Origin: an uncultured Actinomycetes bacterium
GTDB taxonomy: Bacteria > Actinomycetota > Acidimicrobiia > IMCC26256 > DASPTH01
Assembly: GCA_963809795.1 (NCBI GenBank)
Contig: CAWELN010000006.1
Location: 398,409-462,408, forward strand
Direction of reading: 5' to 3'
DNA: 64,000 bases
Of this stretch, positions 19,789 to 39,625 are shown one piece after another. Below the pieces are notes generated by a model, which saw only the letters and a program-made list of their open reading frames with translations, was not told the DNA's origin and ran no database searches. Position 1 is the first letter of the stretch, and every line of letters begins with the position of its first letter. The translations under genes and the position numbers were made by a program.

Positions 19789-19857
19789 CCCGCCGCCCGC
19801 ATGGGTGCGGAATGCACCCATTGCCGCCGGCTCCGGTGCACCGTACCGTCGCCTGAA

Positions 19858-19874: not shown

Positions 19875-19901
19875 TTGGCGGGTGGCGACTCGGGGGGCGG
19901 A

Positions 19902-21029
19902 GTGCACATTCCCGACGGCTACCTCAGCCCCCAGACCTGCGCGGTGATGTACGGCGCCGCCGCGCCATTCTGGGTGGTTGCGGCGCGGCGGGTGCGCAGG
20001 GTGGTCAAGACACGTTCCGTCCCGCTGCTCGCGCTCGGCGCCGCGTACTGCTTCCTCGTGATGATGTTCAACGTGCCGGTGCCCGACGGCACCACCGCGC
20101 ACGCGGTCGGCGCGGTGTTGGTGGCGGTGCTGCTCGGGCCATGGGCAGCGGTGATCGCGGTCAGTGTCGCGTTGGCCATCCAGGCGCTGTTCTTCGGCGA
20201 CGGCGGCGTCCTCGCGTTCGGCGCCAACTGCTTCAACATGGCGGTGGTCATGCCTCTCGTCGGCTACGCGCTCTACCGCGCGATCGCCGGGCGCGTCGCC
20301 CTGACGTCGCCTCGGCGCGCCCTCGCGGCGGGTGTTGGCGCCTACGTCGGCATCAACGCGGCTGCGCTCTTCGCCGCCATCGAGTTCGGGCTGCAGCCGG
20401 ACCTCTTCTACAAGACGACGGCGAATGGTGGCCACGTACCGTTGTACGCGCCGTTCCACCTGTCGCAAACCATCCCGACGATGCTCGGCGCGCACCTCCT
20501 CGTCGCCGGCGTCGTCGAGTTCGTCCTGACGGCCGGAGTGATCGCGTACCTCCAACGGGCGAACCTCCCGATCCTCCGGATCAACCACCCACGAGTGCCC
20601 GACGCGGCCGGCGAGCGCATTGGCGATGACGGCCGCGACGTCGCGCCCAGGCCTCGGCTCCGCGGCATCCTGATCGGGCTCGGGGCCCTCGTCGCCCTGG
20701 TTCCCCTCGGTCTGCTGGCGAGCGGCGGCGCGTTCGGCGAGGACAGTCCCTCGAATCTCGACCTGAAGCAGTACGGCCTCGACGCGGTGCCGACCGGGCT
20801 GCAGAAGTACAGCGACTTCTGGTCGAGCGCGCTGCTTCCGGGCTACGACGTCAAGCACGGCTCGCAGCCGAACCTCGGCTACTACGCGTCCGCCATCATC
20901 GGCACCGTCCTCATCGTCGGCGTCGTGTTCACGGTGTTCCGCGTCGCCGCCCTGCCTCGGCGCCGGCGCGGCGGCCGCGACGGTGACCGCACGGACGCCC
21001 ACGTCGAACGCGACACGGCCGGCGTGTGA
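19902..21029 (+). CDS. nikM: Ni ECF transporter substrate component, NikMN fusion
   Basis: GTG start gives MHIPDGYL (Ni-type N-terminus); TTAHAVG, GDGG; C-terminal PDGLE-like region. Confidence 0.9.
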   Translation: MHIPDGYLSPQTCAVMYGAAAPFWVVAARRVRRVVKTRSVPLLALGAAYCFLVMMFNVPVPDGTTAHAVGAVLVAVLLGPWAAVIAVSVALAIQALFFGDGGVLAFGANCFNMAVVMPLVGYALYRAIAGRVALTSPRRALAAGVGAYVGINAAALFAAIEFGLQPDLFYKTTANGGHVPLYAPFHLSQTIPTMLGAHLLVAGVVEFVLTAGVIAYLQRANLPILRINHPRVPDAAGERIGDDGRDVAPRPRLRGILIGLGALVALVPLGLLASGGAFGEDSPSNLDLKQYGLDAVPTGLQKYSDFWSSALLPGYDVKHGSQPNLGYYASAIIGTVLIVGVVFTVFRVAALPRRRRGGRDGDRTDAHVERDTAGV

Positions 21030-21979
21030 TGGGCACCGCCGACGTCGCGACGACCGGGACCGCCGGGCGCCTCTCGCCCGACTGGCTGTTGCGGGGCGAG
21101 ATCGGACTGTGTCCGTGTGGCTGCGTCGGAAAGCGGCGACGCGGTGGGTTCGTGGCGAAGACCCTCCGCGGGGTGTCCGGGTTCGTCCGCCGCGCGATGT
21201 TCTCCGACGACGTCGCCGCGACGCCGGGCCTGCTGCAGCGGCTCGACGCCCGGGTGAAGGTGCTCACGCTGCTCGGTCTCCTGGTCGTGGCCGCGTTCTT
21301 GCACTCGATCGCCGCGCTGGCAGCGATGTACGTCGTCGCCCTCGCGATTGCGTCGGCGAGCCGCCTCTCCATCAGGTTCTTCGTCGCTCGGGTGTGGCTC
21401 TTCGTGCCCGTCTTCACCGGGATCGTCGTGCTCCCCGCCACGCTGAACCTGGTCACGCCGGGCACGATCGTCGTCCCCTTGGGCCACTGGTTCGGCGGCC
21501 CGGTCGGACTGACCGCTGAGGGCCTGGAGTCGGCGGGGCTCATCGTCATGCGGGTCGCGGTGTCGATCTCGCTCGTCGTGCTCCTCACCGTCACCACGCC
21601 GTGGACGCGGTTGTTGCACGGGCTCCGATCGCTGCGGTTGCCGACGACGGTGATCCTCGTGCTGGCGATGGCGTACCGGTACCTGTTCCACCTGCTCACC
21701 TCGGTCGAGGACATGTACACGGCCCGCCGTGCGCGCACCGTCGGCCCCGACCGCGATCTGGGGAACGGGCGGAGGTTCGTCGCGGCGTCGGCGGGGGCAC
21801 TCTTCGGGAAGGCGCACGGGCTCTCGGAAGAGGTGTACCTGGCGATGGTGGCACGGGGGTTCACCGGCGACGTCCGGCTGCTGGCCCCCGAACGAGTGAA
21901 GCGGCGCGACCTGGCGTGGTGCCTCGCCTGCTGTGCCATCGGCCTCCTCCTGTTGTGGGGTGACCATGTCCTCCGCTGA
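21029..21979 (+). CDS. nikQ: Ni/Co ECF transporter T component
   Basis: LDARVK, MAYRYL, AMVARGF. Confidence 0.9.
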   Translation: MGTADVATTGTAGRLSPDWLLRGEIGLCPCGCVGKRRRGGFVAKTLRGVSGFVRRAMFSDDVAATPGLLQRLDARVKVLTLLGLLVVAAFLHSIAALAAMYVVALAIASASRLSIRFFVARVWLFVPVFTGIVVLPATLNLVTPGTIVVPLGHWFGGPVGLTAEGLESAGLIVMRVAVSISLVVLLTVTTPWTRLLHGLRSLRLPTTVILVLAMAYRYLFHLLTSVEDMYTARRARTVGPDRDLGNGRRFVAASAGALFGKAHGLSEEVYLAMVARGFTGDVRLLAPERVKRRDLAWCLACCAIGLLLLWGDHVLR

Positions 21980-22793
21980 GCCGCGGTCCACGCCGCTCCT
22001 GGAGTGCCGCGACCTCGAGTACTCCTACCTCGGGCGGTTCCCCGCCCTCGACCGCGTCTCGTTGACGGTCGAGCGGGGGGAGAGCGTCGCCCTCCTGGGT
22101 GCGAACGGCTGCGGGAAGTCGACGCTGCTCAAGCTGCTCGACGGTCTCCTGTTCCCCGACGCCGGCGCCTACCGTGCGTTCGGCACCGACGTCACCGAAG
22201 ACCACCTGGAGGACGACCAGTTCTCGCGCGCGTTCCGGGGCCGCGTCGGGTTCATCTTCCAGAACTCCGACGCCCAGGTGTTCTCGCCGACGGTGCGCGA
22301 CGAGGTCGCGTTCGGACCCTTGAACATGGGCCTCGAACGCGACGCGGCGGAGGCGCGCGTCGACGACACGCTCGCCATGCTGGACATCACCGGGCTCGCC
22401 GATCGCCCGCCGTACCAGCTCTCGGGCGGCGAGAAGAAGCGGGTCGCCATCGCATCCGTCCTCGCGATGAACCCGGAGGTGCTCCTCTTCGACGAGCCGA
22501 CCGCCGCCCTCGACCCGCGTACGCAGCACTGGATGGTGGAGCTCATCGCCGAGCTCCACGACGTCGGCCGGACGATCGTGCTCGCGACCCACGATCTCGA
22601 GGCGGTCCCACTGGTCGCCGACCGCTGCGTGGTGCTCGACGAGGACCACCGGGTCGCGAGCGACGGCCCGACCGGCGCGGTGCTCGAGGACGTCGCCCTG
22701 CTCCAGTCCACGAATCTCGTCCACGCCCACGCGCACTTGCATGCCGGCGCAGCCGCGCCGCACGCGCACGCACACGACTCGGGGCACCACTGA
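21966..22793 (+). CDS. nikO: ECF transporter ATPase with His-rich tail
   Basis: GANGCGKST, LSGGEKKR, DEPT; tail HAHAHLH...HAHAHD..HH. Confidence 0.92.
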   Translation: MSSAEPRSTPLLECRDLEYSYLGRFPALDRVSLTVERGESVALLGANGCGKSTLLKLLDGLLFPDAGAYRAFGTDVTEDHLEDDQFSRAFRGRVGFIFQNSDAQVFSPTVRDEVAFGPLNMGLERDAAEARVDDTLAMLDITGLADRPPYQLSGGEKKRVAIASVLAMNPEVLLFDEPTAALDPRTQHWMVELIAELHDVGRTIVLATHDLEAVPLVADRCVVLDEDHRVASDGPTGAVLEDVALLQSTNLVHAHAHLHAGAAAPHAHAHDSGHH

Positions 22794-22794
22794 C

Positions 22795-23232
22795 GTGGCG
22801 GCGTCGCTCGTCGAGCGGACGCTGGCGGAGATCCGGGCCGGTGGTGGGCGGGTCACGCCCGCACGGCGGGCGGTGTTGGCCGCCATCCTCGATACCGGCG
22901 GTCACCACTTCACCGCGGCGGAGATCTTCGCCGCGGTCGACGACGCCCGGCCCCGACCCGACCGCGCCACCGTGTACCGCACGCTCGATCTCCTCACCGA
23001 GCTCGGCGTCGTCACGCCCCTCCAGCTCGACGGCGACGCGACCGTCTACCACCGCGCCGACCACCGGCACGGCCACCTCGTGTGCACCGGTTGTGGCGCG
23101 ATCGCCGAGCTCCCGGAGGCCGCGCGGCAGCTCCTCGCCGGGTCGGTCGAGGACGAGACCGGGTTCGTCGTCGACACCGGACGGGTCGCGATCGCGGGCT
23201 GGTGCCGCGCGTGCGCAGGGAAGGACCTCTGA
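22795..23232 (+). CDS. Fur-family regulator (Nur-like)
   Basis: RVTPARR, TVYRTLDLL, HGHLVCTGC, C-terminal CRAC. Confidence 0.88.
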   Translation: MAASLVERTLAEIRAGGGRVTPARRAVLAAILDTGGHHFTAAEIFAAVDDARPRPDRATVYRTLDLLTELGVVTPLQLDGDATVYHRADHRHGHLVCTGCGAIAELPEAARQLLAGSVEDETGFVVDTGRVAIAGWCRACAGKDL

Positions 23233-23576
23233 TGCACGAGCTCGCGCTCTGCCAGGCCATCGTCGACACGGTGACGCGCCACGCCGACGGGCACCGGGTG
23301 GAGCGGGTGGAGGTGCGCATCGGCCACTTTCGCCAAGTCGTGCCCGACTCGTTGCTGTTCTCGTGGGATCTCCTCGTGGACGGCACCGAGCTGTCGGGCT
23401 GCACGCTGGCGATCGACCACGTGCCCGCGGTCGTCGAGTGCGGCGCGTGCGGGGGCTCGACCACGCTCGACCTGCCGATCCTGATGTGCGGCACGTGCGG
23501 CAGCACCGACGTGGAGCTGGTGAGCGGTGAGGAGTTCCTCATCGCGTCGATCGACCGAGCGAAGGAGGTGTGTTGA
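23232..23576 (+). CDS. hypA: Hydrogenase Ni metallochaperone HypA
   Basis: MHE N-terminus, two CxxC, SGEEF. Confidence 0.95.
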   Translation: MHELALCQAIVDTVTRHADGHRVERVEVRIGHFRQVVPDSLLFSWDLLVDGTELSGCTLAIDHVPAVVECGACGGSTTLDLPILMCGTCGSTDVELVSGEEFLIASIDRAKEVC

Positions 23577-24364
23577 TGGGTCGGTTCCATCGTCACGCCG
23601 ACGGGACGGTGCATACGCACGACCACGAGCACGACCACGAGCACCGCGACGTCGGCGACCACCGGGGCTACGTCGACACCGGCAACGAGCGGGTGGCGGT
23701 GCTCGAGACCATCCTGGCCGAGAACGACCGGACCGCGGACGAGAACCGGTCGGACTTCGCCGCCGCCGGCGTCGTGACCGTCAACCTGATGTCGTCACCC
23801 GGCGCGGGCAAGACCACGCTGCTCAAGCGCACGATCACGATGCTCGGGTCACGCCTGCGCCTCGGCGTCCTGGAGGGCGACATCGCGACGAGCCTGGACG
23901 CCGACGAGCTCAGCGGCCTCGGCGCGCCGGTGGCGCTCGTGAACACCGCCGCCGGCTTCGGTGGCGAGTGCCACCTCGACGCCACGATGGTTCGGTCCGG
24001 TCTCGGCCGGCTGCCGCTGCGCGACCTCGACCTGCTCGTGATCGAGAACGTCGGCAACCTCGTGTGCCCGGCGGAGTTCGACGTCGGTCAGCACGCGCGG
24101 GCGATGGTCTCGGCGGTCACCGAGGGCGAAGAGAAGCCGCTCAAGTACCCGGTGATGTTCCGGGCGTGCGACGTCGTCGTCGTCAACAAGATGGACCTGC
24201 TCCCGCATCTCGACTTCGACCTGGACCGGTTCGTGGGCAATGTCCGGGATGTGAATCCCGCGGCCCGTCTCCTCTTCCTCAGCGCGCGCACCGGTGACGG
24301 CCTCGACGAATGGTGCGAGTGGCTGGTCGAGACCAGCTCGAGACACGGAGGGCTCGGGCTTTGA
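23576..24364 (+). CDS. hypB: Hydrogenase Ni-insertion GTPase HypB
   Basis: His-rich N-terminus, SSPGAGKTT, CHLDA, ENVGNLVCPA, NKMD. Confidence 0.95.
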   Translation: MGRFHRHADGTVHTHDHEHDHEHRDVGDHRGYVDTGNERVAVLETILAENDRTADENRSDFAAAGVVTVNLMSSPGAGKTTLLKRTITMLGSRLRLGVLEGDIATSLDADELSGLGAPVALVNTAAGFGGECHLDATMVRSGLGRLPLRDLDLLVIENVGNLVCPAEFDVGQHARAMVSAVTEGEEKPLKYPVMFRACDVVVVNKMDLLPHLDFDLDRFVGNVRDVNPAARLLFLSARTGDGLDEWCEWLVETSSRHGGLGL

Positions 24365-24389
24365 CACCCGACCAGGACCCGAGTACCAA
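24361..24389 (+). promoter_or_regulatory. Possible sigma-70 promoter TTGACA-N17-TACCAA for the PadR-YceI gene
   Basis: Perfect -35 with 17-bp spacing; imperfect -10. Confidence 0.4.
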
Positions 24390-24450
24390 GGTCTCAGGCG
24401 CGCCGGCGTCCGGTCCTCGGACCGTGATCGGTGTCGATGGGGGTGTGGCG

Positions 24451-25544
24451 GTGGAGCAGCTGGTCATCAGCTCCGATGACGATCCCCGTCGCATGACGCG
24501 CTTCGACCTCGCACCACCCCGCCACTTCGTGTTCCCCGCGGTCCTGCTCCTGCTGTCCGAGGAGCCGAGCTACGGCTACGAGCTGGTCAAGGGCCTCCGG
24601 ACCTTTCGCTTCGGCACCGTCGACCGTCCCGCCGTGTACCGCGCGCTGGCCCAGCTCGAGAAGGACGGCCTGGTGGAGTCGCGGTCGGCCCAGTCGAAGG
24701 CGGGGACCGCGCGGCGCGTGTACCGGCTGACCGAAGCCGGCGAGATCGCCCTGCGGCGGTGGATGGGCGTGATGAAGGAGGAGCGCGACGGGCTCGACCG
24801 CGTGTTGCGCCGCTACCGCGCCACCGCGACCCCCCAGGCGCTGCTGGCCGACGCCGGAGTGCGGTCGGAGGTGCTCTCGGCGCCGCCGGTCATGGCGACG
24901 TCCCCCGCGTCCGACGGCGCCCCGACCACCGGCCTGCGCGTGGTCCCCGCCCTCGACGGCCGGCCGGTCGCGGCGCGGGCGCGGTCGACGGGTCCGACGT
25001 TCGGCACTGCGCGTACCGCCTGCTCCCCGACCGCTCGGCGGTGCTCATCGAGGCCCGGTCGAGCGTCGGGCCGATCACGTTCGGCGCCCTCGGCATCACC
25101 GGCACCATCGGGGTGCAGGCGGTCGGGGAGCAGGTGACGGCCGACGAGGCCGCGTCCGCCCACCTCGAGATCCCCGTCGCCGCGCTCAGCTCGGGGAACG
25201 GTCTCTACGACGCCGAGCTGCGCCGACGGGTGGACGCGGCGCGGTTCCCGGTCGCGACGCTCGACCTCGATCGCTGCCTGGTTGGGGGTTCGGGCGACCA
25301 CCTGACGCTCGAGGGCCGCATCGACTTCCACGGGGTGACCCGCAGCCTCCAGGGCCAGGTGGCCGCCGCGATCCCGAGTCCCGGGCGGTTGGCCGCGACC
25401 GGCGACCAGGTCCTCGACATCCGCGACTTCGGCGTGTCGTCCCCGACCGTCCTGATGTTCCGGATCTACCCGCAGGTCACGGTGAAGCTCCAGGTCGAGG
25501 CCGAGCTCGCGCCGGACGACGAGGACGGAGGTCCCGAACGATGA
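24451..25544 (+). CDS. PadR-family wHTH fused to a YceI domain (one base missing at ~25013)
   Basis: PadR motifs SYGYEL, VYRAL..LE.DGLV, RRVY.LT..G; adding one base gives ...TARYRLLPDRSAVLIEARSS, matching the N-terminus of the YceI at 39110; SGN..YDAELR, FHGVTR, DIRDFG. Confidence 0.75.
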
Positions 25545-25792
25545 AGGTGCTGATCGCGCTGGTGGGTGGCTACCTGATCGGCGCCCGCGCCGGCAGCCGC
25601 GACTTCGACCAGCTCAGCAAGTCGCTGCGCGCGCTCTACGAGTCGGAGGAGTTCGACGACTTCGTGAGCGCGTTGCGCACCCACGCCAGTCACACGTTGC
25701 GCGAGCTGGCCGACGTCCTCGATTCGGGGGGCGAGCTGGTCCCGACCCACGACCTCGTCGAGCGCGTGCGGCAGCTCGCCGCCCGCGACTGA
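25541..25792 (+). CDS. Small hypothetical protein with N-terminal hydrophobic helix
   Basis: ATGA overlap with the preceding gene, GGAG RBS, GYLIGARAG. Confidence 0.7.
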   Translation: MKVLIALVGGYLIGARAGSRDFDQLSKSLRALYESEEFDDFVSALRTHASHTLRELADVLDSGGELVPTHDLVERVRQLAARD

Positions 25793-25799
25793 CGTGGTG

Positions 25800-26603
25800 T
25801 CAGGCGTCGGTCACGTCGCGGCCGATGCCGCGGAGCCCGACCACGTCGCCGGATGTGCCGATCGCGGGTTCGGCCCGGGTCGACAGGTTCCGGCGGGAGC
25901 CGTCACCGCGCTGGATCGCGTAGTCGACGTCGACGGCGCGACCGGTGGCGACGGCGCGTTCCAGCGCGTCCCGCACCTGCGACCGTTCCTCGGGGACGAT
26001 GCGCCCGAGGTGCGCCTCGATGGTGCCCTCGAACTCGAGGGGATCGACCCCATGGATGCGATGGAACTCCGCGCTCCACTGCACGGTGCCGGTGGGCACG
26101 TCCCACAGCCACCGGCCGACGTGCGCGAGGGCCTCGCTCTCCTGCAGCCGCGCCTCGGATTCGGCCAGCAACTGCTGCGCGATGCGCTGCTCGGTGGTGT
26201 CCACCGCGATCGCCACCGCGCCGCAGCGCGCGCCGTCGGCGTCGACGACCGGGTGCAACGACAGCGAGACCGACACGGGCATCCCGGTGCGGCGCTCGAA
26301 GGTCGTCTCCCACCGGTCGACCCGGTCACCCGCCAGCACCGCGTCGACGAGCGTCGCGGCGTGCTCACGGAGGTCGCTCGGGAACAGAACGGGCAACGGA
26401 CCACCGAACACGTGGTCGGCCGCGTAGCCGCAGAGCCGTTCCGCGCCGCGGTTCCAGAGCACGATGCGTCCCTGTGCATCCATCGCGAACATCGCGTCGT
26501 TCGCGGCGTCGACGAGGGTCTCGAGCATCGCGAGTCGTCGCGTCGTCGGGGAATCCGTCTGTACCGTGCGCGGGAGGCTACCCCGGTGTCCCGTCGTGCG
26601 CAC
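25800..26603 (-). CDS. Stand-alone tandem PAS/PAC-domain protein without an output domain
   Basis: DAQGRIVLWNRGAERLCGY and GRWLWDV..GTVQWS...GIGRDVT, then a stop; start uncertain. Confidence 0.75.
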   Translation of the reverse strand: MRTTGHRGSLPRTVQTDSPTTRRLAMLETLVDAANDAMFAMDAQGRIVLWNRGAERLCGYAADHVFGGPLPVLFPSDLREHAATLVDAVLAGDRVDRWETTFERRTGMPVSVSLSLHPVVDADGARCGAVAIAVDTTEQRIAQQLLAESEARLQESEALAHVGRWLWDVPTGTVQWSAEFHRIHGVDPLEFEGTIEAHLGRIVPEERSQVRDALERAVATGRAVDVDYAIQRGDGSRRNLSTRAEPAIGTSGDVVGLRGIGRDVTDA

Positions 26604-26617
26604 CCGGACGCGGCCCG

Positions 26618-27334
26618 ATGACGGCGCGACCCGAGACCACGGCCGAGGACCTGGCTGCGATCGCGCTCGCGTTGGCGCGCCGCTTCTCCGCCGGCGCCAC
26701 GATGTGGTGCCTCGCTCCCGACTGGCCGGAGCACGCGCACCACGTGGCGGTCGAGTTCGTGCACCCGGTGATCATGGGCAAGCGCGCACTGCCGGCGGTC
26801 GCGGTGGTCGACGACGACCCGGTCTCGTGCCTGCGTGTGCAGGTGCGCCGCCACGACGTCCTGCTCGTGGTGGGCCGGGAGTCGAACGCGGCCCGGACCG
26901 TGCTCGAGCGGGCCCGGATCTGGGGGCTGACCACCGTGTGGATCGGGTGCGGGTCCCGTCCCGCGCCCGGGGCAGCCGATCACGTGGTCTGGGTCGACGA
27001 CGACGGTCCCGCCGCGCCGTACGACGGCCGCCTGACCCAGCGGTACCACCTGCTCTGGGAGCTCACCCACGTGTGCTTCGAACATCCGGGCCTGCTCGCG
27101 TCGGTCGACGACTGTGCGGGCGAGGTCTGCATCACCTGCTCCGACGAAGGGAGCGTCGCCGAGGTGGTGGAGGGGGGGACGGCCCACGCAGTGGTGCGGG
27201 ACCCACGGGGTACCACCACCGTCGACACGCTGCTGGTGGGCGCGGTCGTCCCGGGGGACCTGGTGCTGCTCCACGCCGGCACGGCCATCGCACGCGTCGA
27301 CGCGGTCGGCGCGGTCGACGCCGGGAGGCCCTGA
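26618..27334 (+). CDS. SIS-like domain fused to a HypC/HupF-like domain
   Basis: HVAVEFVHPVIMGKRALPA, YHLLWELTHV, CITCSDEG...GDLVLLHAGTAI. Confidence 0.8.
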   Translation: MTARPETTAEDLAAIALALARRFSAGATMWCLAPDWPEHAHHVAVEFVHPVIMGKRALPAVAVVDDDPVSCLRVQVRRHDVLLVVGRESNAARTVLERARIWGLTTVWIGCGSRPAPGAADHVVWVDDDGPAAPYDGRLTQRYHLLWELTHVCFEHPGLLASVDDCAGEVCITCSDEGSVAEVVEGGTAHAVVRDPRGTTTVDTLLVGAVVPGDLVLLHAGTAIARVDAVGAVDAGRP

Positions 27335-27335
27335 C

Positions 27336-27995
27336 GTGGCCGAGGGCACCGACTTCCTGTATCCGTTCATCGAGGGCGACGAGCGCGACGCGGGCACCCT
27401 CCTCGTCGATCTCGCGGCGTCGGTGGAGGCCAAGGTCGCCGCCGGGGACGCGCTGCGCGAAGCCACGTTCGCCCGGCTCGGGACCGAGGTCGCCGCGACC
27501 GCGCGCTCGATGGCGGACCGCTTCCGCCGGGGTGGCCGGCTCTTCACGTTCGGGAACGGCGGGAGCGCCACCGACGCCCGCTCCCTGGCGTCGCTGTTCG
27601 GCCGCCCGCCCGCCGGTCGCCCGCTCCCGGCGCGGTGCCTGGTCGACGACCCTGCCGTGCTCACCGCCCTGGCCAACGACGTCGGCTTCGAGCTGGTCTT
27701 CACCCGCCAGCTCATCGCCCATGCCGGGCCCGACGACATCGCGGTGGGCATCTCGACCAGCGGCAACTCCCGCAACCTGCTGCGCGCGCTCGAGCACGCG
27801 GCGCGCACCGGCCTGCTCACGCTCGGGTTGGCGGGCTACGACGGCGGCGACATGCAGAGGTGCGGCGCGCTCGACGCCTGCTTCGTCGTCGAATCCGACA
27901 GCGTGCACCGCATCCAGGAGGTGCAGGCGGCGTTGGCCTGGCGCCTGTGGTCGGAGGTCCAGGCGTGCCTCGACGAGGACGCGACCGGTGTCTGA
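27336..27995 (+). CDS. GmhA-like SIS-domain (phosphoheptose isomerase family) protein
   Basis: FGNGGSATDA, LTALAND, STSGNS, HRIQE. Confidence 0.88.
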   Translation: MAEGTDFLYPFIEGDERDAGTLLVDLAASVEAKVAAGDALREATFARLGTEVAATARSMADRFRRGGRLFTFGNGGSATDARSLASLFGRPPAGRPLPARCLVDDPAVLTALANDVGFELVFTRQLIAHAGPDDIAVGISTSGNSRNLLRALEHAARTGLLTLGLAGYDGGDMQRCGALDACFVVESDSVHRIQEVQAALAWRLWSEVQACLDEDATGV

Positions 27996-29088
27996 CGCCG
28001 CCGCGCCGATGCCGGGCGACCGCGAAGCCGCGGTCCTCGACCGCATCACCGCCTTCCGGCGTCGTCGGCCGCGCCTCACCGACGACGTGGTGACCCTCGC
28101 GCACGGCGCAGGCGGGAAGGCGTCGGCGGCGCTGGTGGACTCGGTGTTCCTCGACGCGTTCGCGCACGGCGACCCCGGCCCCTTGCCCGACGCGGCGACG
28201 TTGTCGCTCGCCGGCGGGGTCCGACTCGCCTTCAGCACCGACTCGTTCGTGGTGCAACCGCTGCGGTTCCCAGGCGGCTCCATCGGCCACCTCGCGGTGC
28301 ACGGCACCGTGAACGACCTCGCGGTGCAGGGCGCGGAGCCCCGCTGGCTGTCGGCGGCGTTCGTGCTCGAGGAGGGGTTCCCGATCGACGAGCTGCGCGG
28401 CATCGTCGCCGACATGGCCGACGCGGCCCGGGCCGCCCACGTGGAGATCGTCACCGGCGACACCAAGGTGGTCGGGCGCGGCGCGGCCGACGGCATGTTC
28501 GTCACCACCGCGGGCGTCGGCGTCATCCCCGAGGGACGAACGCTCGATGCCGCCCGCGTGGAACCGGGTGACGTCGTGCTCGTCTCGGGCACCATCGCCG
28601 ACCACGGGATGGCGGTGATGCTCGCACGCGGCGACCTCTCGCTCGAGAGCGACATCCGCTCCGACACCGCACCCGTGGGCGTGCTGGTCGACGCGCTCCT
28701 GACCGCGGCGCCGCGGACGCGGTGGCTGCGCGATCCCACGCGCGGTGGCGTCGGCACCGTCTGCAACGAGCTGGCGCGCGACTCGGGCCTGGCCGTGGTC
28801 CTCGACGAGGCCGACCTCCCTGTCCTCCCGGCGGTGAACGGTGCGTGCGACCTCCTCGGGATCGATCCGCTGATGGTGGCCAACGAGGGCAAGGTGGTCG
28901 CGGTCGTGGCGCCCGAGGAGGCCGACGACGCGCTGCGGGCGATGCGCGCACACCCGTTGGGCGGTGACGCGGCGCGCATCGGGGAGATCGCGGCCGAGCC
29001 CGAGGGCATCGTCGTGCTCCGCACGACGTTCGGCGGCACCCGCATCGTCGACATGCTCGTCGGGGACCCGCTGCCCCGGATCTGCTGA
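27988..29088 (+). CDS. hypE: Carbamoyl dehydratase HypE
   Basis: HGAGG, TDSFVV, GDTKVV, RDPTRGG, C-terminal PRIC. Confidence 0.96.
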   Translation: MSDAAAPMPGDREAAVLDRITAFRRRRPRLTDDVVTLAHGAGGKASAALVDSVFLDAFAHGDPGPLPDAATLSLAGGVRLAFSTDSFVVQPLRFPGGSIGHLAVHGTVNDLAVQGAEPRWLSAAFVLEEGFPIDELRGIVADMADAARAAHVEIVTGDTKVVGRGAADGMFVTTAGVGVIPEGRTLDAARVEPGDVVLVSGTIADHGMAVMLARGDLSLESDIRSDTAPVGVLVDALLTAAPRTRWLRDPTRGGVGTVCNELARDSGLAVVLDEADLPVLPAVNGACDLLGIDPLMVANEGKVVAVVAPEEADDALRAMRAHPLGGDAARIGEIAAEPEGIVVLRTTFGGTRIVDMLVGDPLPRIC

Positions 29089-29095
29089 GGCCACG

Positions 29096-31369
29096 GTGGT
29101 CCGCACGTTGCTGCGCGTCACCGGCACCGTGCAGGGAGTCGGCTTCCGCCCGTTCGTGTACCGGCACGCGGTCGCGCTCGGCCTCGTCGGCACCGTGCGC
29201 AACGACAGCGAGGGCGTGCTGATCGACGTCGAGGGCGACCCGGCCGGCGTCGCCGCGCTGGAGCGGGTCCTGACCGAGTCGCCCCCGCCGCTGGCCCGCG
29301 TGGCATCGGTGGAGGCGCGCCCGGTCGCGCCCGACGGCGAGCGCGACGACTTCCGCATCGTCGAGACCGACGCGGTCGGGCCGCTGGCGACCGCGGTGAG
29401 CATCGACACCGCCGCGTGCGACGACTGCCTGGCCGAGGTGGACGATCCGGGGGATCGCCGCTACCGGTACCCGTTCACGAACTGCACCAACTGCGGGCCC
29501 CGCTACACCATCACCCGGCGCGTGCCGTACGACCGGCCCACCACGACCATGGCCGGCTTCTCGATGTGCGCGCGGTGCCGGGCCGAGTACGACGACCCGG
29601 GCGACCGCCGCTTCCATGCCCAACCGAACGCCTGCCCGGACTGCGGGCCGCGCGTGTCCTGGCGCGATGCGCAGGGGGTGCCCGGTGCCGACGGCGACGA
29701 CGCGCTGGACGCCGCCGTTGCCGCGCTGGCGAGCGGGGCGATCGTCGGCGTGAAGGGGATCGGTGGCTTCCACCTGGCCGTGCGGGCCGACGACGAGGAT
29801 CGCGTCGCCGAGCTCCGACGGCGCAAGGCACGCGACGACAAGCCGTTCGCGGTGATGGTGGCCGACGTCGCCGCCGCCGACGCGGTCGGGATGCTCGACG
29901 ACCGGGCGCGGGCGGTCCTCACGTCGCCGGCACGACCGATCGTGATCGTCCCGCGACGCGACGTCGGCACGATCGCGCCCTCGGTCGCACCGGGATCGCC
30001 CGACCTCGGGGTGTTCCTCCCGTATTCGCCGCTCCATCATCTCCTGGTGCGGGGCGTCGGGGCGCCGCTGGTGATGACGAGCGGGAACCGCAGCGACGAC
30101 CCGATCGCGCACGACGACGCCGACGCCGTCGCCCGCCTGGGCCCGCTGGTCGACGCCTTCCTCACCCACGACCGCCCCATCCACATCCGCTGCGACGACT
30201 CGGTGGTGCGGGCGACCCCGCGCCGCGTGCAGGTGCTCCGGCGGTCGCGCGGCTACGCGCCCGAACCGCTCCGGCTCCCCGGCGCGGCCTCGCGTGCGGT
30301 GCTGGCGGTCGGGGGTGAGCTGAAGTGCACCATCGCGGTCACCCGCGAGCACGACGTCGTCGCCGGCCACCACCTCGGCGACCTCGAGCACCTCGCCACG
30401 TACGAGTCGTTCCTCCAGTCGCTCGCGCACCTGCCGGCGCTGTACGGCGTGTCACCGGAGGTCGTCGCGCACGACCTCCACCCGGAGTACCTGTCGTCGA
30501 AGCTGGCGCGCGACCTCGACGTCCCCACCGTCGCGGTGCAGCACCACCACGCACACGTCGCCGCGTGCATGGTCGAGCACGAGCGGCGCGACCCGGTCGT
30601 CGCGCTGGCGTTCGACGGCCTCGGGTACGGGCCCGACGGCACCCTCTGGGGCGGCGAGGTGCTGGTGGCCGGGTTCGACGGCTTCGAGCGCGTCGGCCAT
30701 CTGCGGTCGGTGCCCATGCCCGGGGGCGCGGCGGCGATCCGGGAGCCGTGGCGCATGGCGACGGTCTGGGGTGAGCTCGCCACCGGCGATGCGATCGCGG
30801 TGCGCGGCGTCGACCCCGCCCGCGTCGCCGACGTGCGCAACCTCGCCGGCCGGCCGTCGACCCTGACCACCACCAGCATGGGCCGCTTGTTCGACGCGGT
30901 CGCGGTGCTCCTCGGCGGGCGCACGTCGGTGAGCTACGAGGCCCAGGCCGCCATCGAGCTGGAGTGGTCGGCGCGGCGGGCGGCACCGGGCGACCGGCTC
31001 GACCGGGCTGACCTGGCCGACCTCGTGTCCGTCGCGGACGGCGACGGCGGCCTCGTCCTCGACCCCGGCGCGCTCGTGGCCCGGCTCGTCGCCGAGCGCC
31101 GGGCGGGTACCGACGTCGCGGTGCTCTCGGCCGGGTTCCACGACGCCATCGGGCGCGCCGCAGTCCGGGTCGCGGCCGAGATCGCGCGGACGCGCGGCAT
31201 CGACGCGGTCGTCCTCACCGGCGGCGTCTTCCAGAACACCTACCTCACCGAGGTGGTCGAGTGCGGTCTCGCGGCGGAGGGGCTGCGGGTCCTCGTGCAC
31301 GCCCGAGTGCCGCCGAACGACGGTGGGCTCAGCATCGGCCAGGCGGCGATCGCCGCCCTCGGCACGTAA
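29096..31369 (+). CDS. hypF: Carbamoyltransferase HypF
   Basis: GTVQGVGFRP, zinc fingers, HDLHP, QHHHAH, PPNDGG. Confidence 0.96.
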   Translation: MVRTLLRVTGTVQGVGFRPFVYRHAVALGLVGTVRNDSEGVLIDVEGDPAGVAALERVLTESPPPLARVASVEARPVAPDGERDDFRIVETDAVGPLATAVSIDTAACDDCLAEVDDPGDRRYRYPFTNCTNCGPRYTITRRVPYDRPTTTMAGFSMCARCRAEYDDPGDRRFHAQPNACPDCGPRVSWRDAQGVPGADGDDALDAAVAALASGAIVGVKGIGGFHLAVRADDEDRVAELRRRKARDDKPFAVMVADVAAADAVGMLDDRARAVLTSPARPIVIVPRRDVGTIAPSVAPGSPDLGVFLPYSPLHHLLVRGVGAPLVMTSGNRSDDPIAHDDADAVARLGPLVDAFLTHDRPIHIRCDDSVVRATPRRVQVLRRSRGYAPEPLRLPGAASRAVLAVGGELKCTIAVTREHDVVAGHHLGDLEHLATYESFLQSLAHLPALYGVSPEVVAHDLHPEYLSSKLARDLDVPTVAVQHHHAHVAACMVEHERRDPVVALAFDGLGYGPDGTLWGGEVLVAGFDGFERVGHLRSVPMPGGAAAIREPWRMATVWGELATGDAIAVRGVDPARVADVRNLAGRPSTLTTTSMGRLFDAVAVLLGGRTSVSYEAQAAIELEWSARRAAPGDRLDRADLADLVSVADGDGGLVLDPGALVARLVAERRAGTDVAVLSAGFHDAIGRAAVRVAAEIARTRGIDAVVLTGGVFQNTYLTEVVECGLAAEGLRVLVHARVPPNDGGLSIGQAAIAALGT

Positions 31370-31381
31370 CGGGCCGCGCGG

Positions 31382-32291
31382 TCAGGAACCGCGGAAGGGA
31401 GGCGCGGCACCCCGGCCCATGCCCCAGCTCATGCCCCCGAGGCGGCCCTCCTCGAGCAGATCGGGGCCCCGCACGTCGTACGCGGTGAGCAGGCCTTCGC
31501 CGTCGTCGCCCCGGTTCATCGCGATGCACGGGGCGCGGAACGGGCACCGCGCGCAGTGCACCCACGACGGGTCGGGGTCGATGCGGACGTCCGGGTCGAT
31601 CATGTCCAGGACGACTCGCGCCAACCGGCGCGCCGCGCCGGCCTTCTCGACGTCCGACCGCGGGACCAACCGCCGCCGGTACGCCGGCGGGTCGATGCGC
31701 AGCTCCGTGTACTGGACGCCCGCGATCGTCGTGGCCAGCTCGATCTCCTCCCAGGCCCAGCACGCGAGCGCAGGCGCGCTCGTCGAGCCGGAGCTCGTCG
31801 TCGTCGGCGAACTGCCGGACCACGCGGTGCTCACCGAGCCAGCACCGGTCGTCGTCGTCGACCAACACCAGGTCGATGCGGTCCCGGTAGCGCACCGCGT
31901 CGCCCGCGGTGCTGGCCAGGTGGGTGTCGGGGAGCACCGGGTCGGGGACGTGCACGTCGATGTCGGCCTCGACGCGCAGGGGCGTCCCCTCGTCGGCCGT
32001 GGCCGCCCACCGCAGGAACCCCTCGAGGAGCGCGCGACCGTCGGCCGGCCCGCCCGCCTGCTCGTACGCCGCGTGGACGAACGGCTCGACGATCGTCCGG
32101 TCCCAGGCCCACATGCCGGGGAAGTAGTGCACCGCCAGCGCGGCCCGGAGCGCCACCACCAGGCTCCCGTCCGGCTCGAGCGGGGCGGCGTGGGGCACCA
32201 GTCCCCGCCGGGCCCGGGCGCCGAGATCCCAGGCGCGCCGGCAGCGACCGAACCACTCCCGGTCGTCGGGGGTGACGACGAACTTGGGCAT
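31382..32291 (-). CDS. PD-(D/E)XK superfamily Cas4/AddB-like protein with four conserved Cys; frameshift at ~31772
   Basis: N-terminal F.RCRR, VEA, RIDLV...GEHR, C-terminal HCARCPFRAPC; joins ORFs 31329-32342 and 31382-32731. Confidence 0.7.
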
Positions 32292-32344
32292 CGCCTCATT
32301 CGACGCCTGCGCCCGCCGCCGGTCAAAGGGTGCGCAAGACACTC

Positions 32345-32370
32345 ATTTACAGGTCCGGGGGAGGGGGGTA
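32345..32370 (+). promoter_or_regulatory. Possible SigF/SigB-type promoter ATTT-N17-GGGTA upstream of hhyS
   Basis: Resembles GTTT-N15-17-GGGTA. Confidence 0.4.
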
Positions 32371-32426
32371 CACCCGGGATGGCGGACCAACGCCCCGCCC
32401 ATGGGTCGAGCGCGGGAGGCCCCATC

Positions 32427-33482
32427 GTGACCAGCACGCAAGCCCCTCCGGACGAGACCGTCGTCCACATCCTCTGGATCAACGCCGGGCTGAGCTGTGA
32501 CGGCGACTCGGTCGCCCTCACCGCGGCGACCCAGCCCAGCATCGAGGAGATCGCGCTCGGCGCCCTGCCCGGCCTCCCGAAGATCGCGGTGCACTGGCCG
32601 CTGATCGACTTCGAGTGCGGCCCGGTCGGCGGCGCCGACGACTTCATCGAGTGGTTCTTCAAGGCCGACCGCGGCGAGCTCGAGCCGTTCGTGCTGGTGG
32701 TGGAGGGCTCGATCCCCAACGAGGCGATCAAGAGCGAGGGCTACTGGTGCGGGTTCGGCAACAACCCGGAGACGGACCAGCCGATGACGACGAGCGAGTG
32801 GCTCGACCGCCTGGCGCCGAAGGCGCTGGCGGTGCTCGCGGTCGGCACGTGCGCGGCCTACGGCGGCATCCACGCCATGGCCGGCAACCCGACCGGCGCG
32901 ATGGGCGTGCCCGACTACCTCGGGTGGGGCTGGAAGTCGAAGGCGGGCCTGCCCATCGTGTGCGTGCCCGGGTGCCCCGTGCACCCGGACAACCTCTCCG
33001 AGACCATCCTCTACCTCCTGTACCAGGCGACCGGCCAGGCGCCGATGATCCCGCTCGACGACGCGCTGCGACCGCAATGGCTGTTCGGCGCCACCGTGCA
33101 CGAGGGCTGCGACCGCGCCGGCTACTACGAGCAGGGCGACTTCGCGACCGAGTACGGCTCGCCGAAGTGCATCGTGAAGCTCGGGTGCTGGGGCCCGGTG
33201 GTGAAGTGCAACGTGCCCAAGCGCGGCTGGATCAACGGTGTCGGCGGGTGCCCGAACGTCGGTGGCATCTGCATCGGGTGCACGATGCCCGGCTTCCCGG
33301 ACAAGTTCATGCCGTTCATGGACGAACCACCCGGCGCGCGCGTGTCGACGATGGCGAGCGGGGTGTACGGCAGCGCGATCCGCGGGCTGCGCCGCATCAC
33401 CGCCAAGACCATCGACGAGGAACCGAAGTGGCGGACACCCGGCACGAAGCTCACGACCGGCTACCAGGGCGAGTGGAGGTAA
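32427..33482 (+). CDS. hhyS: Group 1h [NiFe]-hydrogenase small subunit
   Basis: GLSCDGDS, GTCAAYGG, PGCP, HEGCDR, GGCPNVGGICIGC; no Tat signal; GGGAGG RBS (alternative ATG at 32379). Confidence 0.95.
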   Translation: MTSTQAPPDETVVHILWINAGLSCDGDSVALTAATQPSIEEIALGALPGLPKIAVHWPLIDFECGPVGGADDFIEWFFKADRGELEPFVLVVEGSIPNEAIKSEGYWCGFGNNPETDQPMTTSEWLDRLAPKALAVLAVGTCAAYGGIHAMAGNPTGAMGVPDYLGWGWKSKAGLPIVCVPGCPVHPDNLSETILYLLYQATGQAPMIPLDDALRPQWLFGATVHEGCDRAGYYEQGDFATEYGSPKCIVKLGCWGPVVKCNVPKRGWINGVGGCPNVGGICIGCTMPGFPDKFMPFMDEPPGARVSTMASGVYGSAIRGLRRITAKTIDEEPKWRTPGTKLTTGYQGEWR

Positions 33483-33486
33483 TCCG

Positions 33487-35271
33487 ATGGCGACGACCAA
33501 GACCAAGGACGCCAACGGGCTCGTCGAGATGGCGTGGGACCCGATCACCCGGATCGTCGGCAGCCTCGGCATCTACACCAAGATCGACTTCGGTCAGGGC
33601 AAGGTCGCGGAGTGCCACAGCACGTCGTCGATCTTCCGCGGCTACAGCATCTTCATGAAGGGCAAGGACCCGCGCGACGCGCACTTCATCACCAGCCGCA
33701 TCTGTGGGATCTGCGGTGACAACCACGCGACGTGCTCCTGCTACACGCAGAACATGGCGTACGGCGTGCACCCCCCGGCGCTGGGCGAGCAGATCGTCAA
33801 CCTCGGCGAGGCGGCCGAGTACATGTTCGACCACAACATCTTCCAGGAGAACCTGGTCGGCGTCGACTTCTGCGAGAAGATGGTCGCGGAGACCAACCCG
33901 GGTGTCCTCGAGCAGGCGAACCGCACCGAGGCGCCCCACGCGGCCGACCACGGCTACAAGACGATCGGCGACATCATGCGGTCGTTGAACCCGTTCTCGG
34001 GTGAGTTCTACCGCGAGGCACTGCAGGTCAGCCGGTACACGCGCGAGATGTTCTGCCTGATGGAGGGACGCCACGTCCACCCGTCGACGCTGTACCCGGG
34101 TGGAGTCGGCACGACCGCGACCATCCAGCTCTTCACCGACTACTACACGCGGCTCATGCGCTACGTGGAGTTCATGAAGCGCGTCGTCCCGATGCACGAC
34201 GACCTCTTCGACTTCTTCTACCAGGCGCTGCCGGGCTACGAGGAGAACGGCCGGCGGCGCGTGCTCCTCGGCTGCTGGGGCGCGTTCCAGGACCCCGCCG
34301 TCTGCAACTTCAAGTACCGCGACATGAGCGAGTGGGGACGCGCCATGGGCGTCACGCCCGGTGTGGTCGTCGACGGCAAGTTGGTCACCAACGACCTCGT
34401 CGACATCAACCTCGGCATCCGCATCCTCCTCGGTTCCTCGTTCTACGAGGACTGGGAGGGCCAGGAGATGTTCGTCAGCCGGGACCCGCTCGGCAACCCG
34501 GTCGACCGCCGCCACCCGTGGAACCAGCACACCAACCCGCGACCGCAGAAGCGCGACTTCGACAGCAACTACAGCTGGGTCATGTCGCCGCGCTGGTTCG
34601 ACGGCACCGACCACCTCGCGCTCGACACCGGCGGCGGCCCGATCGCGCGCCTCTGGTCGACCGCGCTGTCGGGGCTGGTCAACACCGACCACATCAAGGC
34701 GACCGGTTCGAGCGTGCAGATCTTCCTGCCCCGCACCGCGCTGAAGCCCGAGATGACGCTGGAGTGGAAGGTGCCGCAGTGGTCGAACACGCTCGAGCGT
34801 GACCGCGCGCGCACGTACTTCCAGGCGTACGCGGCCGCCAGCGCGCTCGATTTCATCGAGAAGGCCCTGGCCGACGTGCGCGCCGGCAAGACGAAGACGT
34901 GGGAGCCGTTCGAGGTGCCCGACGAGGGCATCGGCTGTGGGTTCACCGAAGCGGTGCGGGGCGTGCTGTCGCACCACATGGTGATCCGGGAAGGGAAGAT
35001 CGCCAACTACCACCCGTACCCGCCGACCCCGTGGAACGCCAACCCGCGCGACGTCTTCGGCACCCCCGGTCCCTACGAGGACGCGGTGATGAACACCCCG
35101 ATCTTCGAGGAGAACACGCTCGAGAACTTCAAGGGGATCGACATCATGCGCGCCGTCCGCAGCTTCGACCCGTGCCTGCCGTGCGGCGTCCACATGTTCC
35201 TCGGCAAGGGCAAGACGCTCGAGCGGGTGCACACCCCGACCCAGGTCGCGGACTCGACCCTCGCCACCTGA
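33487..35271 (+). CDS. hhyL: Group 1h [NiFe]-hydrogenase large subunit
   Basis: L1 TSRICGICGDNH and L2 RSFDPCLPCGVH group 1h signatures. Confidence 0.96.
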   Translation: MATTKTKDANGLVEMAWDPITRIVGSLGIYTKIDFGQGKVAECHSTSSIFRGYSIFMKGKDPRDAHFITSRICGICGDNHATCSCYTQNMAYGVHPPALGEQIVNLGEAAEYMFDHNIFQENLVGVDFCEKMVAETNPGVLEQANRTEAPHAADHGYKTIGDIMRSLNPFSGEFYREALQVSRYTREMFCLMEGRHVHPSTLYPGGVGTTATIQLFTDYYTRLMRYVEFMKRVVPMHDDLFDFFYQALPGYEENGRRRVLLGCWGAFQDPAVCNFKYRDMSEWGRAMGVTPGVVVDGKLVTNDLVDINLGIRILLGSSFYEDWEGQEMFVSRDPLGNPVDRRHPWNQHTNPRPQKRDFDSNYSWVMSPRWFDGTDHLALDTGGGPIARLWSTALSGLVNTDHIKATGSSVQIFLPRTALKPEMTLEWKVPQWSNTLERDRARTYFQAYAAASALDFIEKALADVRAGKTKTWEPFEVPDEGIGCGFTEAVRGVLSHHMVIREGKIANYHPYPPTPWNANPRDVFGTPGPYEDAVMNTPIFEENTLENFKGIDIMRAVRSFDPCLPCGVHMFLGKGKTLERVHTPTQVADSTLAT

Positions 35272-39001: not shown

Positions 39002-39102
39002 TCCGCAAGCTGTTCGTGTTGTCGGCGCTCGCGGCGGTCGCCGGCCTGGTGATCCGCTCGCTGCCCGACATCCAGCGGTATCTCAAGATCCGTGAGATGT
39101 AG
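38998..39102 (+). CDS. 34-aa membrane peptide (DUF6893-like), below the ORF-track cutoff
   Basis: MIRKLFVLSALAAVAGLVIRSLPDIQRYLKIREM; AAGGAG RBS and ATGA overlap. Confidence 0.8.
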   Translation: MIRKLFVLSALAAVAGLVIRSLPDIQRYLKIREM

Positions 39103-39109
39103 GCGGTTC

Positions 39110-39625
39110 GTGGCCCGCTACCGCATCGTGCCCGAGCGCTCGAAGGTGTTCATCTCCGCCCGCTCCAGCCTCCACCCGATCGACACGCGCACCGACGGGT
39201 TGGAGGGCTTCGTCGACCTCGAGGTGCAGGGCGGCGGGCGCCTGAACCTGACCGTGCCGACGAAGGGCCGGGTGTCGTTCCCGGTCGAGCGGATGGCGTC
39301 GGGCAACCCGCTCGAGGATCGCGAGCTGCGGCGCCGAATCGACGCCCGCCGCTACCCGACGATCGAGGGCGCGCTCACCGACATGCACGAGACGGGACGG
39401 GACGGCCGGTACCTGGTACGCGGCGACGTGACGTTCAAGGGCTCCACCCGCAGCTACGAAGACGAGATGGCGGTGTCGCAGGACGACGACGGGACGCTGC
39501 GGTTGACGGGGGAGTCCATCTTCGACATCCGCGACTTCGGCATGGACCCGCCGCGCATCCTCATGCTCAAGGTCGAACCCGAGGTCGGCGTGCGGGTCGA
39601 GATCCTCGCCGAGCGGGAGGGCTGA
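39110..39625 (+). CDS. YceI-family lipid/polyisoprenoid-binding protein, no signal peptide
   Basis: RS.VFI.ARSS, SGNPLEDRELR, YPTI, GDVTFKG.TR, DIRDFG. Confidence 0.8.
   Translation: MARYRIVPERSKVFISARSSLHPIDTRTDGLEGFVDLEVQGGGRLNLTVPTKGRVSFPVERMASGNPLEDRELRRRIDARRYPTIEGALTDMHETGRDGRYLVRGDVTFKGSTRSYEDEMAVSQDDDGTLRLTGESIFDIRDFGMDPPRILMLKVEPEVGVRVEILAEREG

Follow-up and report, generated by a model that had tools for sequence, protein, structure and literature searches.

In the small PadR subfamily, the helix that follows the winged-helix DNA-binding domain serves in dimerization, and PadR and LmrR recognize an operator of the form ATGT-N8-ACAT. PhaQ, a PadR-class repressor, responds to a hydrophobic storage compound. 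Known YceI proteins stand alone and are mostly secreted or periplasmic. In the consulted portions of PMC6291622, YceI-family proteins are described as bacterial lipocalins, and vitamins E and K2 overcome the resistance that lipocalins mediate. High-affinity hydrogenases of soil bacteria consume atmospheric H2, and how these enzymes are switched on is an open question. As far as the consulted part of a 2026 mSystems paper goes (PMC13098282), direct transcription factors for the hydrogenase Huc are unidentified and the induction of Hhy during starvation is likewise open; the known regulators of uptake hydrogenases, namely HoxJ/HoxA with a sensory hydrogenase, RegB/RegA, DosST/DosR and GylR upstream of Huc, are two-component systems or indirect catabolite sensors. 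Here, we examine a 64,000-nucleotide (nt) stretch of DNA from an uncultured Actinomycetes bacterium of the class Acidimicrobiia (contig CAWELN010000006.1; hereafter the window), in which a hydrogenase gene cluster contains, at 24451 to 25544 on the forward strand, the two halves of a gene for a PadR-YceI fusion protein. We consider it fairly probable that this is the broken copy of a candidate one-component regulator that would act locally on the Hhy hydrogenase regulon and hold a hydrophobic ligand in its YceI barrel.

The gene lies between hypB (23570-24364) and a gene for a protein of 83 amino acids (aa; 25541-25792), and in the window it is read as two frames offset by one base. Its parts, and the element in front of it, are the following:

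24361..24389, + strand: promoter-like element of padR-yceI, with TTGACA at 24361-24366 (overlapping the hypB stop), a 17-nt spacer and TACCAA at 24384-24389
24451..24976, + strand: 5' part of the broken gene, encoding the PadR winged helix, the C-terminal helix and most of the Ala/Pro-rich linker
24977..24979, + strand: position of the lost base, a GGG run one base longer in relatives and in contigs from other samples
24977..25544, + strand: 3' part of the broken gene, encoding the end of the linker and the YceI-like domain in a frame offset by one base, with the stop TGA at 25542-25544

The PadR frame (24310..25137) matches PF03551 with 64.2 bits (E=1.1e-17, cutoff 27) over profile positions 1-74 of 75, and the frame ending at 25544 matches the YceI profile PF04264 with 43.1 bits (E=7.4e-11, cutoff 23.7) over positions 19-150 of 150. 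The likely start of the PadR frame is GTG 24451 (VEQL.., which aligns with the MEQ/IEH N-termini of homologues) or ATG 24493. We read the two frames as one gene split by a lone base because the YceI frame contains no ATG, GTG or TTG from 24759 to 25041, and because a hypothetical start at 25041 would remove the first strand-like segment YRLLPDRSAVLIEARS, which is conserved in all homologues. The promoter-like element has counterparts elsewhere, as a TTGACA-N17-TA(n)GAA layout precedes padR-yceI in most of the 48 divergent loci that we printed, and we infer from its form that it may drive padR-yceI.

Relatives show what the intact gene looks like. The 3' part is 94-95% identical over 178-179 aa to uninterrupted 411-aa open reading frames (ORFs) of two genomes (G003 and G011), and a 394-aa protein that represents a cluster of 53 members (P0003) equals the two joined window halves except at one residue, reading ..PVAARGAVDGSDVRHCAYRLLPDRS.. 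around the junction. These uninterrupted ORFs of G003, G011 and P0003 each carry a sensor-type and a DNA-binding domain, as expected for a one-component regulator, while the window ORF is interrupted at 24977-24979. In a DNA alignment with two congeners that are ~95% identical, a single base is missing at 24977/24978, some 35 nt before 25013; in pairwise blastn the gap falls at 24978 (L014) or 24981 (L015), and all of these positions are inside one ambiguous G/C stretch. The original prediction had proposed that adding one base yields a single PadR-linker-YceI protein of ~364 aa and that the YceI frame has no convincing start of its own. Both points hold: the mended gene encodes 364 aa from the start at 24451, the relatives are intact, and start codons are missing as described above. 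Its placement of the break at ~25013 has to be moved, since the congener alignment, the contigs described below and blastn all put the lost G at 24977-24979. Likewise, the junction it gave as ARYRLLPDRS is not encoded, AYRLLPDRS lying already within the YceI frame, although the free YceI at 39092-39625 does start with ..ARYRIVPERS.. as it had stated.

PadR-YceI is a conserved family that we found only in Acidimicrobiia. In the intact protein of ~350-365 aa, a variable Ala/Pro-rich linker joins an N-terminal PadR winged helix, with its C-terminal helix, to a YceI-like (bacterial lipocalin) domain at the C-terminus. Using the intact congener protein L003:985-2034 (350 aa) as a query, we scored 8000 candidates and obtained 569 proteins at E<=1e-3. 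The best 120 cover 79-100% of the query and 109 of them carry both PF03551 and PF04264 in precomputed Pfam annotation, so the full-length homologues that the original prediction called for do exist. Some of the homologues are named 'PadR family transcriptional regulator' or 'DNA-binding PadR family transcriptional regulator/polyisoprenoid-binding protein YceI' at their source. A profile search of 1.84 billion cluster representatives returned 7616, 1393 and 236 matches at E<=1e-3, 1e-10 and 1e-30, respectively, which mix full-length forms with fragments, PadR-only proteins and free YceI proteins. Two clusters of the ESM Atlas, of 78 and 149 proteins, carry PadR throughout (100%) and YceI in 97-99% of their members. 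An alignment of 37 members shows a conserved PadR domain and helix-like segment, a linker of variable length and sequence and a YceI part that is strongly conserved and contains the motifs RSAVLIEARSxVGPITFGA, SGNxLYDAELxRR, FHG and DIRDFxxxSPTVLMLRIYP.

Relatives are encoded in 144 species genomes (GTDB, one genome per species). The locus counts given below use 80 loci kept from these genomes, all of them from metagenome-assembled genomes (MAGs), with titles that read Acidimicrobiia, Acidimicrobiales, Ilumatobacteraceae, Microthrixaceae, Acidimicrobiaceae or a broader name at the level of Actinomycetota. Within an even sample of the class, the full-length fused gene is present in 4/301 genomes (G000, where it is split, G021, G294 and G258). 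An even sample of the phylum, 401 genomes, has both halves in G000 only, a count that came from a stricter first screen and is a floor.

Contigs from four soil-metagenome runs (X1-X4, four studies) were aligned to 24400-25600 and bear on the nature of the break. All three near-identical contigs that bridge it, one each from X1, X2 and X4 and thus from three studies, carry an extra G behind 24976; they align over 796, 751 and 395 nt and show 3, 4 and 6 other differences to the window, respectively. X1 may be the source sample of the window itself, in which case it is not independent, yet it would then point to an assembly error. No contig from X3 bridges 24976, its only match being an uninformative 28-nt piece of an unrelated contig. 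Additionally, padR-yceI is split into two frames in 7/80 other loci (L071, L075, L076, L078, L080, L084 and L093), at places that differ. All seven belong to a series of MAG records whose titles begin with 'MFD', which supply 44 of the 80 loci and which we take to be long-read assemblies, compared with 0/36 splits among the other loci. This confinement to one record series indicates assembly indels, and such indels will probably split genes in the annotation of the series. Split tblastn matches for hypE, hypF, hhyS or hhyL also occur in the MFD series (L026, L035, L072, L081 and L082).

Alternatively, the break could be genuine in this strain, making the gene a recent frameshift pseudogene with a PadR-only product of 214-228 aa, an out-of-frame tail and an untranslated YceI domain. 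The window sequence itself does carry the gap. Over 22959-34182 (11.2 kb), moreover, the break is the sole uncompensated frame-breaking indel within a gene relative to L015; the assembly is therefore not indel-ridden here and a real lesion is possible. Contigs also drop rare variants, which leaves room for a minority allele. Set against these points are the extra G in every bridging contig, the position of the lost base in a G run, and the restriction of the seven other splits to a single record series. We conclude that the break in the window is probably an assembly or consensus error, and we regard a real lesion as possible but doubtful. For annotation, the split in the window should count as one broken gene; 7/80 related MAG loci show similar splits.

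The surroundings of the gene connect it to a hydrogenase. By Pfam matches, the gene row in the window runs cbiM-cbiQ-cbiO (19875-22793), a Fur-family gene (22741-23232), hypA, hypB, padR-yceI, the 83-aa gene (s83) and a convergent PAS-PAS gene, and continues with a hypC-like gene, a SIS-domain gene, hypE, hypF, the small and large [NiFe]-hydrogenase subunits (to 35271), a NifU-like gene, a DUF5947+DUF6084 gene, a free YceI gene, hypC and hypD. The matches on which the hydrogenase assignment of this locus rests are Oxidored_q6 with NiFe_hyd_SSU_C, NiFeSe_Hases, HypA-F, NifU, DUF5947 and DUF6084. Following the original prediction in the use of hhy names, we take the enzyme to be a putative Hhy (group 1h) hydrogenase. 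Two long ORFs without a Pfam match lie in or beside the cluster, at 37196-38419 on the minus strand and at 41130-42542 on the plus strand. The former has tblastn matches in 11/80 loci, and its N-terminus is rich in Ser, Thr and Trp and may be a wrong-frame artefact.

We measured how regular this context is by tblastn of 21 window proteins against the 80 loci, with flanks of up to 10 kb. The PAS gene is present in 78 loci, s83 in 74, hhyL in 61, hhyS in 58, hypA in 56 and the NifU-like gene in 49. At least one hydrogenase or hyp gene occurs in the flanks of 75/80 loci, the remaining five being contigs of 2.6-11 kb, which bears out the tie between padR-yceI homologues and hydrogenase loci that the original prediction had put forward for checking. 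Where the full 10-kb flanks are available, hhyS or hhyL is found in 46/50 loci, and the other four hold NifU, DUF5947/6084, hypC and hypD, three of them also hypF. Gene order varies by lineage, while the trio of padR-yceI, s83 and the convergent PAS gene remains together. In 51/78 loci padR-yceI is transcribed divergently across a short spacer, from hhyS (24 loci), hypA (24) or the free yceI (3). An hhyS orthologue is also present in 4/4 fused-gene genomes of the class sample, as compared with HhyS-like genes in 11/301 of its genomes. The homologues are hence fused and hydrogenase-linked, rather than always being two separate genes unlinked to hydrogenases.

Some relatives of the PadR part lack the fusion. 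PadR-only proteins (E=1e-22 to 1e-27, with the YceI part unmatched) are encoded 1-6 kb from distant HhyS-like genes (47-53% identical) at G041:C19, G151:C196 and G321:C46, and the PadR clade may be linked to hydrogenases more widely than the fusion is.

When upstream regions were printed, we noticed an AT-rich element of 18-21 nt in the spacers between hhyS and padR-yceI. Oriented with hhyS, it reads GTGCAAAAGACACTCATT, and it always lies just upstream of hhyS regardless of the position of padR-yceI. The window contains two such sites:

32326..32374, + strand: hhyS promoter region, with an imperfect 21-bp palindrome, AAGGGTGC-GCAAG-ACACTCAT, at 32326-32346, a -35-like TTTACA at 32346-32351, a 17-nt spacer and a -10-like TACACC at 32369-32374
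19801..19849, + strand: cbiM site, with a perfect 8-N5-8 palindrome, ATGGGTGC-GGAAT-GCACCCAT, at 19801-19821, abutting a -35-like TTGCCG, with a 17-nt spacer and TACCGT at 19844-19849; position weight matrix (PWM) score 18.8

The hhyS gene probably starts at GTG 32427, after GGGAGG. Its site has a PWM score of 41.9 and was matched in 0/100 shuffles; with up to 3 mismatches, the window 18-mer finds the hhyS site alone in the 4.88-Mb genome, where a reversed-pattern control gave 2 matches. We built the PWM from 50 sites and applied thresholds of >=14 in the loci and >=10 in control loci. At >=14, the 1.39 Mb of loci contain 67 sites and their shuffled counterparts 0. Of the 58 loci that bear hhyS, 56 have a site upstream of it, a figure that is partly circular in that the matrix derives from 50 of the 56 sites it finds. 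Lower-scoring sites precede cbiM (window 19801, L014, L016 and L037), diverged hhyS promoters (L024, L025, L034 and L047) and the free yceI where it heads a divergent operon (L042 and L059). They reveal the symmetry of the general form, AT(S)(G/A)GTGN-N5-NCAC(C/T)(S)AT, which abuts the -35 box. The center of the site is ~45 nt before the expected transcription start, a position that fits an activator or a repressor alike.

An earlier palindrome screen of 350 nt upstream had yielded GGACGA-N5-TCGTCC, GCGATC-N5-GATCGC and GTGCA-N13-TGCAC; these were rejected, as they lie 150-330 nt upstream, within divergent hhyS/hypA coding starts; GTGCAC..GAGCTC, for instance, is the start of hypA read on the reverse strand.

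The cbiM site heads the cbiM-cbiQ-cbiO-fur-hypA-hypB row that ends at padR-yceI. This gene row, together with the palindrome at 19801, suggests that the supply of nickel or cobalt may be co-regulated with the hydrogenase in the window lineage. The transporter in question, cbiM(+PDGLE)-cbiQ-cbiO, and the Fur-family gene occupy 19875-23232, upstream of hypA-hypB. On the other side of the hhyS palindrome, a 320-aa ORF without a Pfam match (31332-32291, minus strand; MPKFVVTPDDREWF..) starts 35 nt upstream of it and is divergent from hhyS. L014-L016 share the conserved start region of this ORF, and L021 and L032 seem to have a similar one; given this conservation, the palindrome may serve both directions.

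The site and the fused gene tend to occur together. At 29 control hhyS loci from other Actinomycetota (HhyS 65-88% identical), in whose genomes the phylum search found no fused gene, no site reached a score of 10; these loci were taken with up to 1.5 kb of flank on either side, four being shortened by contig ends, and they include none of the five genomes flagged unpublished, which enter only the tally of 62/401. Among the class genomes, a site precedes hhyS in G000, G021 and G294, and a diverged site is present in G281. No site was seen at hhyS of G304, which has a HhyS 82% identical and in which the fused gene was not found, or in five class genomes with distant HhyS-like genes. PadR-YceI is, moreover, the only near-universal protein with a DNA-binding domain among the 21 tblastn queries. 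The sole other query with a DNA-binding family match, the Fur-like gene, lies within 10 kb in 7/80 loci. As a comparison of sequences, this co-occurrence is suggestive and not phylogenetically independent.

Another protein could instead recognize the palindrome, for instance a nickel regulator of the Fur/Nur type or an activator specific to the clade, with PadR-YceI controlling something else or only itself, s83 and PAS. Several findings weigh against our preferred assignment, in addition to the circularity of the PWM count. The operator assignment is guilt by association, and since every genome positive for the factor belongs to Acidimicrobiia, the site might be a promoter feature of this clade that is recognized by a factor encoded elsewhere, for example of the Fur/Nur type. 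The promoter of padR-yceI in the window has no such site; G258 has the fused gene and no site before its hhyS (64% identical, on another contig); and G281 has the site, yet only the PadR part was matched there. The cbiM site, one of the two in the window, stands before an operon for nickel/cobalt transport that itself encodes a Fur-family protein. On the sensor side, the YceI match is moderate (43 bits), the only YceI match by sequence in the PDB is 5ixh (E=1.5e-3), and the domain is not specific to hydrogenases, given that genomes lacking hhyS also encode free YceI relatives with similar scores. A Fur-type reader is hard to reconcile, however, with a Fur-like gene near 7/80 loci against sites at 56/58 hhyS promoters, and a different factor would not explain why the site sits in the short hhyS/padR-yceI spacer in 24 loci or why it is missing from the 29 hhyS loci where no fused gene was found. 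We therefore consider another reader of the palindrome rather unlikely.

Three further genes of the cluster may be relevant to the function of PadR-YceI or of the enzyme:

25541..25792, + strand: s83, 83 aa, whose ATG overlaps the padR-yceI stop (ATGA), with a hydrophobic segment at the N-terminus, MKVLIALVGGYLIGA, and after it a segment judged helical by eye
25800..26603, - strand: stand-alone PAS-PAS protein, 267 aa, with PAS_4, PAS, PAS_9 and PAS_3 matches and a TIGR00229 match (E=1e-28, two stretches)
39092..39625, + strand: free YceI paralogue (PF04264, E=4.5e-10), 38% identical to the fused domain and directly upstream of hypC-hypD

The s83 protein has no Pfam or NCBIfam match, and its nearest named atlas cluster is YtxH at 0.82, which is a lead only, the others being unnamed. 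An alignment of s83 sequences (69 ORFs listed) has invariant M1, G10, G14, E37, R46, D71 and V76 and a hydrophobic, Gly-containing N-terminus. The gene directly follows padR-yceI in 74/80 loci, and the PAS-PAS gene, convergent with padR-yceI and s83, holds its position in 78/80. No output domain appears among the Pfam and NCBIfam matches of the PAS-PAS protein. We suggest that s83 and PAS-PAS may be partners of PadR-YceI. The free yceI stands beside hypC in many of the 80 loci, and outside the class YceI-like matches occur ~6 kb from hhyS on the same contig in G380:C19 and G625:C70. A stand-alone lipocalin thus seems to be a regular member of Hhy clusters, where one could speculate that it carries a lipid or quinone for the enzyme.

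These neighbors offer another role for the YceI domain, which might sense no diffusible ligand and instead anchor the regulator at the membrane or on a partner (s83, PAS, the free YceI or the hydrogenase), giving control by sequestration. The hydrophobic N-terminal segment of s83, the overlap of its start with the padR-yceI stop and the near-constant presence of s83 and PAS would all suit such a role, and PhaQ, the best NCBIfam match although below cutoff, is titrated by poly-beta-hydroxybutyrate (PHB) granules. There is, though, no sign of any contact. Complex prediction for the fused protein and s83 from their alignments, run with controls absent, gave scores of 0.26 and 0.07 against a mark of 0.32, which speak neither for nor against a complex. 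YceI proteins are, furthermore, known to bind hydrophobic small molecules, to judge from the consulted portions of PMC6291622 on bacterial lipocalins and vitamins E and K2. We regard tethering in place of ligand sensing as unlikely. Two natural genes or a programmed -1 ribosomal frameshift, with the fusion as an artefact, can be ruled out for practical purposes, for while the change from the PadR to the YceI frame is formally a -1 shift, the YceI frame lacks a start codon, relatives have one uninterrupted ORF, inspection by eye finds no slippery heptamer at GCGCGGGCG, and the break places differ among other MAGs.

We return, then, to PadR-YceI as a ligand-responsive regulator of the hydrogenase cluster. 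In the mechanism that we propose, a PadR-YceI dimer would bind the 21-bp palindrome abutting the -35 box of the hhyS promoter. In the window lineage it would also bind the promoter of cbiMQO-fur-hypAB, a nickel-transporter/hypAB operon that runs into padR-yceI itself. A hydrophobic ligand in the YceI barrel would alter DNA binding, and this ligand would most plausibly be an isoprenoid quinone or another membrane lipid. An isoprenoid quinone is a reasonable guess because vitamins E and K2 (menaquinone) are linked to YceI lipocalins in the consulted portions of PMC6291622. The original prediction had described a transcription factor that controls the hydrogenase genes. What stands of this is the linkage to hydrogenases, the divergent transcription in 51/78 loci and the co-occurring palindrome; control of those genes is what these observations would predict. 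Its further idea, a quinone or isoprenoid ligand that would report the respiratory redox state, may hold and draws on what is known of YceI proteins. Comparative evidence thus supports well a putative regulator role and the link to the hydrogenase.

A bolder version of this model would join PadR-YceI, a membrane-anchored s83 and PAS-PAS into one device that senses the state of the isoprenoid-quinone pool by means of a lipocalin barrel, a relative of the free YceI (itself a quinone shuttle for a soluble Hhy), and directly switches the hydrogenase that oxidizes atmospheric H2 together with its nickel supply. We think this improbable as a whole. If it were true, a high-affinity hydrogenase would for the first time have a known direct transcription factor, operator and signal.

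In a literature search whose coverage excluded ~1.7 million PMC articles and the subscription literature, neither a fusion of PadR with YceI nor regulation of hhy by a PadR protein turned up as the subject of a paper. PMC6291622 came up as a possible paper on PadR plus YceI and was discarded, as 'PadR' there matches a person's name only. The statement of the original prediction that no characterized regulator with this architecture is known accords with this, none having turned up in the literature searched. While the architecture is already visible in automatic annotation, a sensor domain of this kind on a PadR one-component regulator, with a defined candidate regulon, is previously undescribed. 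The analysis supplies a set of candidates, namely a transcription factor encoded in the locus, a 21-bp operator in the promoters of hhyS and of the nickel transporter, and, as the class of signal, hydrophobic ligands of the YceI barrel. All three are testable in vitro with synthetic DNA and recombinant protein, although the carriers are uncultured Acidimicrobiia. Confirmation would add a lipocalin-type barrel to the sensor domains known in one-component regulators.

PadR-YceI can finally be set beside the systems with which we began. With the small PadR regulators (TM0937, 2esh; 4esf; 6abt; LmrR, 3f8b/3f8c) it shares the winged helix, PadR chains in the PDB being matched down to E=8e-11 with 2esh the best, as well as a helix-like segment after the wing and a candidate operator with the two-fold symmetry expected for a dimer. 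It differs in its C-terminus: known members have 100-190 aa and end in nothing or in a helical domain, and of the 48 PDB sequences with a match at E<=0.01, none spans both halves of the profile. The candidate half-site also differs from that of PadR and LmrR, with G-GTG in an 8-N5-8 arrangement. PhaQ (TIGR02719, the poly-beta-hydroxybutyrate-responsive repressor) is the best NCBIfam match of the PadR part, over residues 9-109, but identity with it was rejected at 65.5 and 63.9 bits against an equivalog cutoff of 139.35, and PhaQ has no YceI domain and another genomic context. YceI-like bacterial lipocalins (PF04264; for example 5ixh, Burkholderia BcnA) resemble the C-terminal domain with a Pfam score above the gathering cutoff, whereas here the domain is the C-terminal end of a DNA-binding protein and lacks its own signal peptide. 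With the uptake-hydrogenase regulators named at the outset, PadR-YceI would share the task of setting the expression of an aerobic uptake hydrogenase; unlike them, it would be a one-component factor encoded in the hydrogenase locus itself.

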